Shown in pieces: positions 779 through 22,566 of a DNA stretch of 64,000 nt (position 1 is the first letter of the stretch; each line of letters opens with the position of its first letter). The position numbers and the translations under genes are program-made. Source of the DNA: Promethearchaeota archaeon. GTDB lineage: Archaea > Asgardarchaeota > Lokiarchaeia > Sigyniarchaeales > SOKP01. The stretch lies in assembly GCA_016839555.1 (NCBI GenBank), contig JAEOUA010000008.1, positions 32,001 through 96,000 on the forward strand, written 5' to 3'. Below the pieces are notes generated by a model. That model was not told where the DNA came from, searched no databases, and was given only the letters and a program-made list of their open reading frames with translations.

Positions 779-1957
779 ATGAAAATAGATTACGCGAAAA
801 GATTAACTCGATTACCTAAATATATTTTTGCTCAAATAGAAGAATTGATAGCTGAAAAAAAAAGGGCTGGGGAAAGTTTAATAAAGCTTGGAATTGGAGA
901 TCCGGATTTAACAACACCAGAATTAATCGTAAATGAATTAATAGAGCAAGTAAAAGTACCAGAGAATCAAAATTATCCAACCTCTAAAGGAGAGACTTTT
1001 TATAGAGAGGGTATTGCTCGTTGGAATAAAGTTCGGTATGGCATCGATTTAGATCCTGAAACAGAAATATCTCATGTAATAGGGGGAAAAGAAGGAGTTG
1101 CCAATATTGCAAGAGCATTTATTGAACCGGGAGATATTGTTCTATGTCCAAATCCGGGATATCCCGTATATGAGAATGGCGCTACAAAACTATGCGATGG
1201 AGAGCCTTATTTAATGCCTTTAAAAAAAGAAAATAATTTTTTACCAGATATAGAAGCTATTGATTCAGATATTTTGATAAAAGCAAAAATGATGTATATA
1301 AACTATCCGAATAATCCTACAGGAGCTATTATCCCTAAATCATATTTAAAGAAATTAGTTGATTATGCCGAAGATTATAAATTTTTTATTGTTCATGATA
1401 ATCCTTATTCTGAATTCACTTTTGATGATTATATTGCACCAAGCATTTTACAAATAAGCCAGGAACACGTTGAAATCAATAGCGCCTCAAAAATGTTTAA
1501 TATGACTGGCTTTCGATGCGGTTGGATTGCAGGAAATGCTTATATTATTGAAGGCTTACGAAAAGTAAAATCTCAAATTGATTCTGGTGGACCAATTTTT
1601 ATTCAAAAAGCAGTAATCAAAGGTTTAAATGAATACAAATCAGAAAAAAAACCAGAGATCATCCAAAAAAATATGGATATCTATCAAAAAAGGCGAGATG
1701 TTTTAGTTAAAGGTTTAAATGATATAGGATGGAAAACAGATAAACCCCATGCCACCTTTTATATTTGGACCCAAATTCCAGAACAATATTGTAATTTGAC
1801 TTGTTTGGAATTTGTTAAAAAATTAATAAATGTGGGGGTAATATTAACGCCTGGAGTTGGTTTTGGAAAATATGGAGAAGGTTTTGTCAGATTTGCTTTA
1901 ACACAATCCGTTGAAACCATCAAAGAAGCGTTAAAAAGAATAGAGAAAATTCTTTAA
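779..1957 (+). CDS. PLP-dependent class I/II aminotransferase (LL-diaminopimelate aminotransferase-like)
   Basis: GIGDPD, NYPNNPTG, DNPY, SASKMFNMTGFRCG (PLP lysine), GEGFVRFAL; substrate not determinable from motifs. Confidence 0.85.
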   Translation: MKIDYAKRLTRLPKYIFAQIEELIAEKKRAGESLIKLGIGDPDLTTPELIVNELIEQVKVPENQNYPTSKGETFYREGIARWNKVRYGIDLDPETEISHVIGGKEGVANIARAFIEPGDIVLCPNPGYPVYENGATKLCDGEPYLMPLKKENNFLPDIEAIDSDILIKAKMMYINYPNNPTGAIIPKSYLKKLVDYAEDYKFFIVHDNPYSEFTFDDYIAPSILQISQEHVEINSASKMFNMTGFRCGWIAGNAYIIEGLRKVKSQIDSGGPIFIQKAVIKGLNEYKSEKKPEIIQKNMDIYQKRRDVLVKGLNDIGWKTDKPHATFYIWTQIPEQYCNLTCLEFVKKLINVGVILTPGVGFGKYGEGFVRFALTQSVETIKEALKRIEKIL

Positions 1958-2017
1958 TTTTTAAAATCATTTTTCAAAATTCTGTAAACATTTCAAAAAT
2001 ATATAATTATTTATATT

Positions 2018-2155
2018 TTACCACGCAATTTCTTCATAATTAATAAAGCACTCAGCAGGAAGAGCAAACCTTGTATGATCAAGAAGCATAGTCATATAGG
2101 TTTTTCCTTTACTTTTTTTGGACTTTAATATTGACCCTTGTTTTATTATAGCCAC
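2018..2155 (-). CDS. 45-aa microprotein MAIIKQGSILKSKKSKGKTYMTMLLDHTRFALPAECFINYEEIAW (not in ORF track)
   Basis: GTG start 9 nt after a strong SD (GGAGGT, 2170-2165); TAA stop; protein-like composition; no Val codon after the start. Confidence 0.65.
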   Translation of the reverse strand: MAIIKQGSILKSKKSKGKTYMTMLLDHTRFALPAECFINYEEIAW

Positions 2156-2207
2156 CTCTTTTTTACCTCCTTTTTATTTTTTTCTATTTATGATATGGCT
2201 GTTAAAC

Positions 2208-2317
2208 AAGAAAGCACCGATCCGATGACCTTTTTAGAAATAAAATATGATTATATTCCCAAGAGAACAATCCCGCAGATATTTCATAAAAAAAAGGTTA
2301 GTCGGAAATGCTCTCTT
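2208..2317 (-). promoter_or_regulatory. ~110-nt imperfect RNA hairpin in the leader of the 45-aa ORF (putative attenuator)
   Basis: Arms AAGAGAGCAUUUCCGACUAACCUUUUUUUUAUGAAAUAU / AUAUUUUAUUUCUAAAAAGGUCAUCGGAUCGGUGCUUUCUU; most deviations are G-U wobbles on the minus strand only. Confidence 0.7.
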
Positions 2318-2319
2318 CT

Positions 2320-2391
2320 TTATAATACTACCTCTAATACTACAACTACTGATAATGCTTTCCTATTAAAGGTAATATTATTCGAAATCAT
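2320..2391 (-). CDS. 23-aa Val-rich putative leader peptide MISNNITFNRKALSVVVVLEVVL
   Basis: ATG ~30 nt downstream of TTTAAATA; 6 Val in the last 9 codons; stop codon 2 nt before the hairpin. Confidence 0.6.
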   Translation of the reverse strand: MISNNITFNRKALSVVVVLEVVL

Positions 2392-2420
2392 AGTTATTAC
2401 TATAATTAATTAAGATATTC

Positions 2421-2428
2421 TATTTAAA
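2421..2428 (-). promoter_or_regulatory. TATA box for the leader-peptide transcript
   Basis: TTTAAATA on the minus strand, spaced for a near-leaderless start at 2391. Confidence 0.5.
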
Positions 2429-2553
2429 TCTTATGCTATAGAACATAGCGAATTATAAAAGTTTTCAGAATCCAATTAAATTTTAAAAATAGTAATAATG
2501 ATAAAATATATCGATATAATTTAAAAAATAAAATAAAAATGTAAATATTAACT

Positions 2554-3873
2554 ATGGAAAAGAAAATCGTTTTAATTGGAGCTGGTTCCACATCATTTGG
2601 TCCTTCAATGTTTTCAGATCTATATCAGAGTGAAGTTCTTAACGGTTCTACTGTAGTATTAAATGATATTGATAAAGAAAAATTAGATATTATTTATGAA
2701 TTACTCTCCATTGAAAATGAAAAAGCAAATAATAAATTTGAATTGCAAAAAACTCTAAATCGAAAAGAAGCTTTAAAAGATGCAGATTTCATAATTAGCT
2801 CGATTGAGGTTGGAGATAGAATGAAACTTTGGTGGCAAGATTACACTATACCTCGAGAATATGGTTCAACTCAGATTCTGGGTGAGTGTGGTGGTCCAGG
2901 TGGTACGTTTCATGCATTTAGAATCATTCCACCTATTATCGATATTGTAAAAGATGTCGAAAAAATATGCCCTAAAGCTTTTTTTATTAATTTTTCAAAC
3001 CCAATGTCTCGGGTTTGCTTAGCAATTAAGAGAGCAGTAGATATTAATTTTATTGGATTGTGTCATCAAATCCATTTCCTTGAAATTCATCTTCCTAGAA
3101 TGTTAAATATAAAACTGGAAAACCTTCGAATGACGGTTGCGGGCTTGAATCATTTTGGATTTCTTTTAGATCTTAAAGATTTAAGAACAAATAAATCTTT
3201 GATGCTTGAATTTAATGAAAAAGCGATGAATTATTTTAAAAAGTATGAAGATCCCTTTGAATTTTCCACGCTTACTTTTGAAGTTTATAAAAGATTTGGA
3301 TATTTCCCTCATCCAGGCGATAATCATCTCGGAGAATATTTGCAGTTTGGCGAGGAGTTCACTACCACTCAAGATATGATCAATTGGATAAATCGAACAG
3401 ATAAGTTTAATGTGGGGATTTATAAAAAAGTATTAAGATATCATAAGCGATTGAAGGAGGGAAGATATCCTCGAAAAGGAATGCTATATAAAGTCCCTTC
3501 TGGTGAGCGGGCAATTCCAATAATTGAGGCTATTATAAAAAATGAAAATTCTTATGAGCCTTCAGTTAATATCCCAAATAATGGACTGATTGAAAATTTA
3601 CCTCAAGATCTAGTTGTTGAGGTCCCTGTTAGAGTTAATAAGGAGGGGGTTAATGGAGTAAAATTGGGAAAAATTCCTAAAAATATTGCAGCACTTTTAC
3701 GTATTGAGGCAACAATTCAAGATTTATGTGTAGAGGCGATATTAAAGAAATCAAAAAAATTAGCAATCGCTTCTTTAGCAATAGATCTAAACGTTGGGAG
3801 TTTTGAAAGAGCAGAAAAGATTTATAGCAAAATGAGTGAAATTCAGAAAGGTTATTTACCTAATTTTAAGTAA
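2554..3873 (+). CDS. Family 4 glycoside hydrolase (NAD+/Mn2+-dependent alpha-galactosidase/glucosidase)
   Basis: KIVLIGAGS, GECGGPGG, NFSNP, GLCH, AGLNHF, HLGEY, VVEVP. Confidence 0.92.
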   Translation: MEKKIVLIGAGSTSFGPSMFSDLYQSEVLNGSTVVLNDIDKEKLDIIYELLSIENEKANNKFELQKTLNRKEALKDADFIISSIEVGDRMKLWWQDYTIPREYGSTQILGECGGPGGTFHAFRIIPPIIDIVKDVEKICPKAFFINFSNPMSRVCLAIKRAVDINFIGLCHQIHFLEIHLPRMLNIKLENLRMTVAGLNHFGFLLDLKDLRTNKSLMLEFNEKAMNYFKKYEDPFEFSTLTFEVYKRFGYFPHPGDNHLGEYLQFGEEFTTTQDMINWINRTDKFNVGIYKKVLRYHKRLKEGRYPRKGMLYKVPSGERAIPIIEAIIKNENSYEPSVNIPNNGLIENLPQDLVVEVPVRVNKEGVNGVKLGKIPKNIAALLRIEATIQDLCVEAILKKSKKLAIASLAIDLNVGSFERAEKIYSKMSEIQKGYLPNFK

Positions 3874-22468: not shown

Positions 22469-22566
22469 AGCCAGCGATGGGAATTGAACCCATGATAAAT
22501 GGCTTTCCACGATAGTTGGGTATTTAAGTTCTGCAGGCCATCTCCTTGCCGCTCGGAAACGCTGGC
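22469..22566 (-). tRNA. tRNA-Cys(GCA) with 26-nt intron at 37/38 (22505-22530)
   Basis: GCCAGCG/CGCTGGC acceptor stem, U73, ATGGC/GCCAT anticodon stem, CTGCAG loop, T arm ATGGG-TTCAATT-CCCAT; 72-nt exons. Confidence 0.95.

Follow-up and report, generated by a model that had tools for sequence, protein, structure and literature searches.

Does a ribosome, through its position on a short leader reading frame, set the expression of a small-protein gene in an Asgard archaeon? The question is raised by an intergenic gap in the window, our term for the 64,000-nucleotide (nt) stretch of a Promethearchaeota archaeon genome analysed here (GenBank assembly GCA_016839555.1, contig JAEOUA010000008.1, positions 32,001 to 96,000 of the forward strand). 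A first-pass annotation of this DNA had listed on the minus strand a TATA box, a near-leaderless upstream open reading frame (uORF) of 23 amino acids (aa), a hairpin, the Shine-Dalgarno (SD) sequence GGAGGU and a 45-aa open reading frame (ORF), here small ORF 1 (sORF1), and had read them as a leader-peptide attenuator. All of these elements are present (Table 1), and the core of that reading is supported by the in-frame uORF, by codon runs that match the downstream gene and by mutually exclusive helices that covary. On sequence grounds, we consider it quite likely that the window leader is such an attenuator, through which a translating ribosome would gauge the supply of charged Val- and Leu-tRNA. 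The window element is a Val/Leu-type member of a larger branched-chain leader family and lies upstream of a conserved 45-aa protein, its putative control target. The family as a whole probably constitutes a regulon of ribosome-read leader-peptide switches, in which one homologous RNA would have been re-tuned by its codon run (Leu, Val, Ile/Val or Ala/Val/Ile/Leu) to control leuS, ilvE, genes for an acyl-CoA dehydrogenase (ACAD) with Etf, an FrhB/TrmB-like gene and two small-protein families.

The Val/Leu run that closes the uORF is rare in its genome. Among 180,148 open frames of at least 12 codons, counted over the whole genome, only three end in a tail with at least four Val and at least eight Val plus Leu in the last ten codons; the other two are out-of-frame stretches within genes, and no further Val/Leu-tailed short ORF lies outside genes in this genome. 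Genome-wide codon use stands at 4.7% Val and 10.5% Ile, with Ile the commonest residue of the proteome. Twenty-five sORF1 loci from nine genera keep the TATA box, uORF, structured segments and SD upstream. The uORF is in frame at every one of them, with 23–29 codons, TAA, TAG or TGA as the stop, and at least seven distinct lengths, each a multiple of three. The last eight codons of these uORFs comprise 101 Val, 86 Leu and 13 others, with no Ile, Phe or Met among the 200, and the final codon is Leu in all 25 through TTA, CTC, CTA or CTT. The run singled out in the first-pass annotation is kept at these sORF1 loci, together with the uORF and the covarying pairs described below.

The leader extends well beyond sORF1. 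A covariance model (R1) was built from eight seed leaders, covering the stretch from the uORF tail to segment C2 and encoding helix A1:B alone (segments in Table 1). R1 recovers 25/25 known sORF1 leaders. The window leader scores 109.5 bits (expectation value, E, 1.2e-14) and is single copy in its genome; it is one of the eight seeds and matches by construction, and 94 further loci outside the seed match. Within the archaeal family, 98 of the 135 genomes contain a match; 125 genomes drawn from 26 other families of the phylum contain none. An intact uORF of 20–32 codons is found in 101 of the 102 leaders retrieved. The sole broken uORF, at L082, is a 7-codon ORF that ends early; its Ile/Val tail, IIEIIVVIIL, lies in another frame, and the leader precedes an FrhB-like gene. 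This break may reflect a sequencing error or a decayed copy.

When the downstream genes of the 102 leaders were classed via NCBIfam and Pfam, the uORF codon run was found to follow the downstream gene. Archaeal-type leuS (leucine-tRNA ligase) stands behind 49 leaders, in which Leu makes up 67% of the last eight uORF codons, and bacterial-type leuS stands behind four, with 75% Leu. The 28 sORF1 leaders carry 51% Val, 43% Leu and 0% Ile in the same positions; the three leaders before ACAD with EtfB and EtfA carry 58% Val, and the six before a gene for an FrhB-like protein with a fused TrmB domain, meaB coming next, carry 48% Ile and 32% Val. Two leaders precede the branched-chain aminotransferase gene ilvE (above the NCBIfam cut-off), with 38% Ala, 31% Val, 19% Leu and 12% Ile. 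The remaining ten precede a second small ORF of ~65 aa (sORF2) and are mixed in composition. Leu runs before two unrelated types of leuS are the strongest single argument for selection on codon identity as well as on RNA pairing.

The four bacterial-type leuS leaders (L079, L080, L092 and L094) come from one genus, their synthetase matches TIGR00396 (E 6e-124), and their uORFs end in five to six Leu codons, as if the same leader had been recruited separately. In the FrhB-like class, the locus at L140 continues into the genes for a MeaB GTPase and a helix-turn-helix (HTH) protein. MeaB is the partner of methylmalonyl-CoA mutase, which hints at a link between the FrhB/TrmB-meaB locus and Ile/Val breakdown through propionyl-CoA.

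The same comparison bears on the possibility that the uORF encodes a hydrophobic micropeptide with a function of its own, which would make the locus a two-gene small-protein operon; we regard this as highly improbable. The N-terminus of the peptide, MISNN(T), is conserved, and its last 16 residues have, in one genus, sufficient hydrophobicity for a membrane helix. Against this, the tail contains Asp and Glu in the window and its genus and falls short of the length of a membrane span, the central residues are unconserved, the peptide's composition changes with the downstream gene, and the conserved N-terminal codons coincide with the 5' arm of an RNA hairpin, P0. A leader-peptide attenuator, read for its codons, remains the preferred reading.

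We turn to the RNA that such a ribosome would act upon. The minus strand folds at -64.1 kcal/mol (z -5.0, 0/200 shuffles as good) versus only -41.3 kcal/mol (z -1.8) for the plus strand; this difference indicates a structure of the minus-strand RNA that relies on G-U pairing. Downstream of the uORF, segment A1 has two partners, B and C1, which are mutually exclusive. In helix P1 (A1:B), 14/15 positions are paired in the window; A1:C1 together with A2:C2 forms the long hairpin of the minimum-energy fold. C1 can alternatively base-pair with the SD region ahead of the 45-aa ORF and then plays an anti-SD role, and AAAGGAGG at the SD is kept in 25/25 sORF1 leaders. The first-pass annotation had already proposed mutually exclusive pairings. 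Exclusivity is indeed conserved, in the form of A1:B versus A1:C1, but the pairings it named were different ones and B had escaped it.

To measure conservation of these helices, a cognate test set the duplex energies of segments within one genome against those obtained after swapping partners among genera, with composition kept and optimisation equal. In the sORF1 set, cognate partners outperformed swapped ones for A1:B (z -5.5, 0/1814 swaps as good), A2:C2 (z -6.0, 0/1890), A1:C1 (z -9.7, 0/1808) and C1 with the ribosome-binding site (RBS; z -3.5, 0/1879). Eight control pairs in this first test gave no signal, and the negative controls B:C1, B:C2, A1:C2 and A2:B likewise showed no cognate signal (B:C1, z +0.9 in the first test and z -0.4 in the wide test). 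Wide swapped-partner tests over 35–67 clusters returned z -12.5 for A1:B, z -8.5 for A1:C1, z -7.0 for A2:C2 and z -5.0 for C1:RBS, with null controls; six control segment pairs were without signal across the two rounds of testing. Two pairings of the first-pass annotation fell away in these tests. It had assigned the anti-SD role to the U-tract arm ACCUUUUUUUU, pairing with the SD or the start (z +1.7 and z -0.8); A2:RBS was among the eight signal-free controls, so that the A2 duplex with the SD or start, though possible, was rejected as a conserved pairing, and the conserved partner of this arm is AAAAAGGU (C2). It had also proposed that the uORF codons R-K-A-L mimic the hairpin base, which amounts to the 5' half of the uORF pairing with C1 (z -1.5, unconserved). 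Pairing of the free uORF 5' half with A1 or with B, considered as a further candidate, was weak (z -2.2 and z -1.5) and came from one genus.

Column-by-column covariation leads to the same helices. On 102 sequences, 92.4% of 1238 A1:B cells are paired and 11/13 pairs change on both sides; 186 compensatory cells compare with 63.5 in shuffles, 0/500 shuffles reach the observed values, and slid controls pair at 38–50%. The wide alignment was fitted to the A1:B helix, so the A1:B count is not independent. A2:C2 was unmodelled in that alignment and its count is therefore independent: 88.2% of cells are paired, with 52 compensatory cells versus 23.7 in shuffles (0/500). RNAalifold on plain MAFFT alignments recovered the A2:C2 core alone because the A1 and B registers were misaligned, a problem solved by covariance-model alignment. 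The geometry of the leader is similarly constrained. Across the family, the A1 arm begins -3 to +2 nt relative to where the uORF stop ends, and the oligo-U tract starts 20–26 nt after the stop (21 nt in 59/101 leaders), contains a run of at least five T in 88/101 leaders and sits between A1 and B, not directly after the hairpin. Two single-stranded motifs, GGAUUUG and CUUUUUC, are nearly invariant.

Conserved alternative helices of near-equal stability, along with single-stranded motifs that could be contact sites, are also what a ligand-, tRNA- or protein-binding switch of the riboswitch or T-box kind would display, with the A1/B/C helices as its receptor and the uORF incidental or secondary. 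We judge this very unlikely. No Rfam family matched the leader at gathering score in the window (Leu, Thr, His, Trp and Phe leaders and the T-box included), and within positions 1950–2560, at E up to 1, the sole match was a chance microRNA hit of 19.8 bits. A strict in-frame uORF, its fixed adjacency to A1 and runs matched to the downstream gene would moreover be unexpected for such a switch.

Taken together, a model for the leader emerges. The TATA box starts 37 nt 5' of the uORF ATG, so that the 5' untranslated region (UTR) would be only a few nt long; this spacing, from which the transcription start is estimated, implies a near-leaderless uORF mRNA. A TATA-like motif begins 29–35 nt 5' of the uORF ATG in 96/101 related leaders, and no SD precedes the uORF ATG. 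We infer that the minus-strand region serves as the 5' leader in a small mRNA of two cistrons (uORF and sORF1), a ~430-nt transcript that likely ends at a run of five T (T5) past sORF1. P0 takes in the 5' end, and therefore only a ribosome that loads during transcription could read the uORF. The first ribosome would load on the 5' AUG during RNA synthesis, and would then either be held in the Val/Leu run or reach the stop codon and there cover A1. Its position as B, and then C, exit the polymerase would decide whether A1 is free for B. As synthesis of B precedes that of C, A1, if free, would take B first, and C1 would then close the RBS of sORF1 (OFF). Were A1 instead covered by a ribosome at the uORF end until A2:C2 had formed, A:C would zip up and leave the site open (ON). 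The 21-nt spacing would put a stop-codon ribosome in contact with the polymerase on the oligo-U tract, which may introduce a further pause or termination step, dependent on ribosome-polymerase coupling. Oligo-U tracts signal pausing and termination in archaea, so such a coupling-dependent termination layer, a role for the tract that the first-pass annotation had also raised, is plausible.

Constrained folding was used to query these states in the window leader. The sORF1 start region was unpaired with probability 0.33 when P1 was enforced, 0.60 when A:C was allowed and 0.40 when A1 was masked, and the same direction of start accessibility recurred in 26/34 leaders across classes. Masking A1, in the manner of a stop-codon ribosome, lowered the unpaired probability of the SD from 0.51 to 0.26. 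The ensemble energies of the A1:B and A:C states are near-equal (-31.5 versus -33.7 kcal/mol). One conformer is predicted to sequester the SD and start of sORF1 and the other to free them.

The sign of control, that is, which amino-acid state is ON, is not fixed by the sequence, as geometry, equilibrium folding and regulon logic conflict. A ribosome held in the run would mostly leave A1 free, which argues that a stall is OFF; a ribosome held at the stop or within the final one to three codons would cover A1. By analogy with pheST, the leuS target suggests that starvation is ON, and the ACAD-Etf and meaB targets suggest that abundance is ON. The scheme of the first-pass annotation, with a ribosome stalled on the Val codons as ON and one at the stop as OFF, is unsupported, given that the sequence does not decide the sign.

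Hairpin P0, which was absent from the first-pass list of elements, offers a different view of the codon run. Its 5' arm comprises the N-N-I-T-F-N codons and its 3' arm the Val/Leu run with the first base of the stop, so that Val/Leu codons (GUAGUAUUA...) pair with Asn/Thr codons near the uORF start. P0 covaries (z -6.7, 0/1820 swaps as good in the sORF1 set; z -12.0 over 42 clusters in the wide test), and GTA accounts for 88% of Val codons in the sORF1-class run versus ~35% genome-wide. The run being the 3' arm of P0 and strongly biased to GTA and TTA, RNA pairing therefore shapes it along with codon identity. In addition, sORF2-class uORFs lack clear Val/Leu/Ile runs. All of this would be expected of a constitutive structured leader without amino-acid sensing, in which translation of the uORF only opens or remodels the structure, stabilises the mRNA or limits expression to a co-transcriptional burst, and the Val/Leu codons exist since (GUA)n(UUA)n pairs well with the P0 arm AAUAAUACUAC. 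We hold this to be unlikely. Against it stand a run composition that shifts with the downstream gene in the cognate sense, with Leu before both unrelated leuS types, the absence of Ile from the 200 sORF1-class tail codons when it dominates the FrhB-like class, and a final Leu kept through two-base codon changes.

The GTA bias, the contribution of RNA pairing and the sORF2-class uORFs nevertheless weigh against a sensor of amino acids, as do the following points. i) One genus (L030, L031 and L039) has sORF1 behind a plain promoter with a ~30-nt 5' UTR and without uORF or leader, and the leader is therefore a lineage-specific addition. ii) The sORF1 target is tied to no known pathway, which makes the valine logic uncheckable for the window member. 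iii) leuS leaders have a weak SD or none and a small change in start accessibility (0.57 versus 0.73), and translational masking may not be the common output of the family. iv) The window's C1 holds a bacterial-type terminator (2227–2215 plus CUUUCUUGUU); it was rejected as a family feature, being found in 6/101 leaders versus 1.0 expected and unconserved. v) Starvation-ON control would be natural for leuS and abundance-ON control for ACAD-Etf and meaB, so the regulon would mix two logics. vi) Toehold displacement via A2:C2, with C2 displacing B, could erase A1:B after transcription and would weaken any kinetic trap.

Table 1. Coordinates of the leader, its RNA segments and associated genes. 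Plain numbers are window positions; entries beginning with L refer to loci of relatives.
Feature	Position	Strand	Description
Intergenic gap	1958-2553		596 nt, between two plus-strand genes
DapL-like class I aminotransferase	779-1957	+	Convergent with the minus-strand sORF1 transcript
Family-4 glycosidase	2554-3873	+	Far side of the gap
TATA box	2428-2421	-	TTTAAATA
Leader uORF	2391-2320	-	MISNNITFNRKALSVVVVLEVVL; 23 codons plus TAA; ATG at 2391, stop at 2322-2320
Regulatory codon run	2349-2323	-	V-V-V-V-L-E-V-V-L (6 Val, 2 Leu); abuts the uORF stop
P0, uORF self-hairpin	2381-2322	-	18 base pairs; minimum-energy fold; 5' arm 2381-2364, 3' arm 2339-2322
Long hairpin	2321-2205	-	Minimum-energy fold
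A1	2317-2303	-	AAGAGAGCAUUUCCG; purine-rich, SD-like; starts 2 nt after the uORF stop
A2	2298-2288	-	ACC followed by eight U; 5' arm of helix A2:C2; conserved oligo-U tract
B	2275-2261	-	CGGGAUUGUUCUCUU; first A1 partner (helix P1); read by hand from the sequence
C2	2235-2228	-	A2 partner; from fold and alignment
C1	2227-2208	-	CAUCGGAUCGGUGCUUUCUU; pyrimidine-rich; second A1 partner; closes the long hairpin
SD of the 45-aa ORF	2170-2165	-	GGAGGU; sequence inspection
sORF1	2155-2018	-	45-aa acidic protein, GTG start; motif LDxxRFxxPAE...IAW
T5 tract	1995-1999	-	19 nt 3' of the sORF1 stop
tRNA gene	22469-22566	-	Rfam RF00005, 47.4 bits
sORF2	L090:761-955	-
sORF2	L129:759-953	-
sORF2	L084:769-912	-
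sORF2	L068:1667-1867	+
sORF1/sORF2 neighbours	L023, L024, L025, L026, L027, L029, L016, L040, L056		~420-510 nt after the leader
Broken uORF	L082:1001-1112	-	Sole case among 102 leaders
FrhB/FdhB-like gene with meaB	L140:336-4034	+	C-terminal TrmB DNA-binding domain; then MeaB GTPase and HTH protein

The two small-protein families deserve separate description. Homologues of sORF1 occur in 38/154 genomes of the order, all within one family. In public sources they are hypothetical proteins from organisms named Promethearchaeia or Lokiarchaeota, which bears out the assignment of the window to an Asgard archaeal host in the first-pass annotation. sORF1 has no Pfam or NCBIfam family match and no protein-atlas match, and its AlphaFold model is poor (predicted local distance difference test score, pLDDT, 60; predicted template modelling score, pTM, 0.21). 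The first-pass annotation had emphasised a target free of Val; this holds for the window protein after its GTG start, but the trait is unconserved and incidental, as most homologues begin MTVI.... The genomes of L030, L031 and L039, with their leaderless sORF1, carry the leader before leuS instead. In another genus (L036, L042, L043 and L044), a gene for a formylmethanofuran dehydrogenase subunit A-like amidohydrolase comes after sORF1 in the same orientation, where the window has the convergent aminotransferase gene.

The sORF2 protein is unannotated, ends in ...EDEKKxGYLRKKYSKxSK and has no Pfam or NCBIfam match; it stands behind leaders of the same RNA family, and several of its uORFs (MNFSRHNT..., MSFHNTMDH...) are without clean Val/Leu/Ile runs. 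No relationship between sORF1 and sORF2 was detected by hhalign (probability 1%). The two adjoin in many relatives, and tandem same-family leaders, one for each ORF, occur in at least two genomes (L134 and L088, each with two leaders); the window has sORF1 only. Elsewhere in the genome there is no second copy of the 596-nt gap, and a repeat or mobile element was rejected as its origin on this ground. The tRNA gene of Table 1 spans 98 nt versus a 71-position model, and an intron is therefore probable.

Several known systems invite comparison. E. coli ivbL-ilvBN (with a Val/Leu run), leuL and pheM-pheST are bacterial ribosome-mediated leader-peptide attenuators. The archaeal leaders resemble such attenuators in a short leader ORF whose codon run is cognate to the regulated gene, in exclusive helices that start at the ORF end, in an aminoacyl-tRNA synthetase gene among the targets and in a stop-codon position that would decide whether the next RNA segment is covered, here by presumed ribosome selection. 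They differ in host and RNA polymerase, which are archaeal; in a (near-)leaderless uORF folded on itself; in having no terminator hairpin with U-run as a rule (6/101 leaders), the oligo-U lying within the loop of the first helix; in a computed output of RBS access; and in the lack of any sequence or Rfam relation. For ermC and cat, the signal is drug-dependent nascent-peptide stalling, and in ermC segments 2 and 3 pair. The four-segment logic is shared, in that coverage of the SD by segment 3 depends on how segment 1 is paired; unlike in ermC and cat, the proposed signal here is tRNA charging, and A1 pairs with either B or C1, which do not pair with each other. T-boxes, found at Gram-positive synthetase genes, bind uncharged tRNA directly and have no uORF. 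Control of aminoacyl-tRNA synthetase and amino-acid genes by tRNA charging through alternative helices would be common to both, but the archaeal leaders have a uORF and no T-box match. One RNA scaffold re-tuned to several amino acids further sets the family apart from the bacterial leader-peptide attenuators.

Closer precedents come from the published literature. Classical attenuators have been predicted before leuS and trpS in Streptomyces (PMC1262725). In mycobacteria, leaderless poly-Cys short ORFs are reported to act as translational attenuators of a 'ribulon' in which several loci share one amino-acid signal; they control access to the ribosome-binding site, and a stalled ribosome reportedly blocks structures that otherwise sequester it (10.1101/834739). 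Their architecture is the closest, a leaderless sensory short ORF with a codon tract; those are bacterial and respond to Cys, whereas here there is a three-way choice among A1:B, A1:C1 and C1:RBS, and amino-acid runs differ among leaders. Archaeal ribosome profiling reports uORFs but no attenuation (PMC7261190). The first-pass annotation knew of no such switch in Asgard archaea, in agreement with our literature search, which found no leader-peptide switch in Asgard or other archaea.

The leader family offers a concrete and testable case of attenuation in Asgard archaea, and its RNA architecture is unlike those of bacteria. Annotation of ~100 loci is possible with the covariance model, and the unannotated sORF1 and sORF2 families are marked as likely parts of a branched-chain amino-acid response. 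Ribosome-mediated attenuation is a textbook bacterial mechanism that needs coupled transcription and translation. If the reading is true, the regulon would be the first attenuation system in Archaea, the 45-aa sORF1 protein would be a new Val/Leu-controlled effector, and the leaders would directly attest to gene control through transcription-translation coupling among the closest prokaryotic relatives of eukaryotes.

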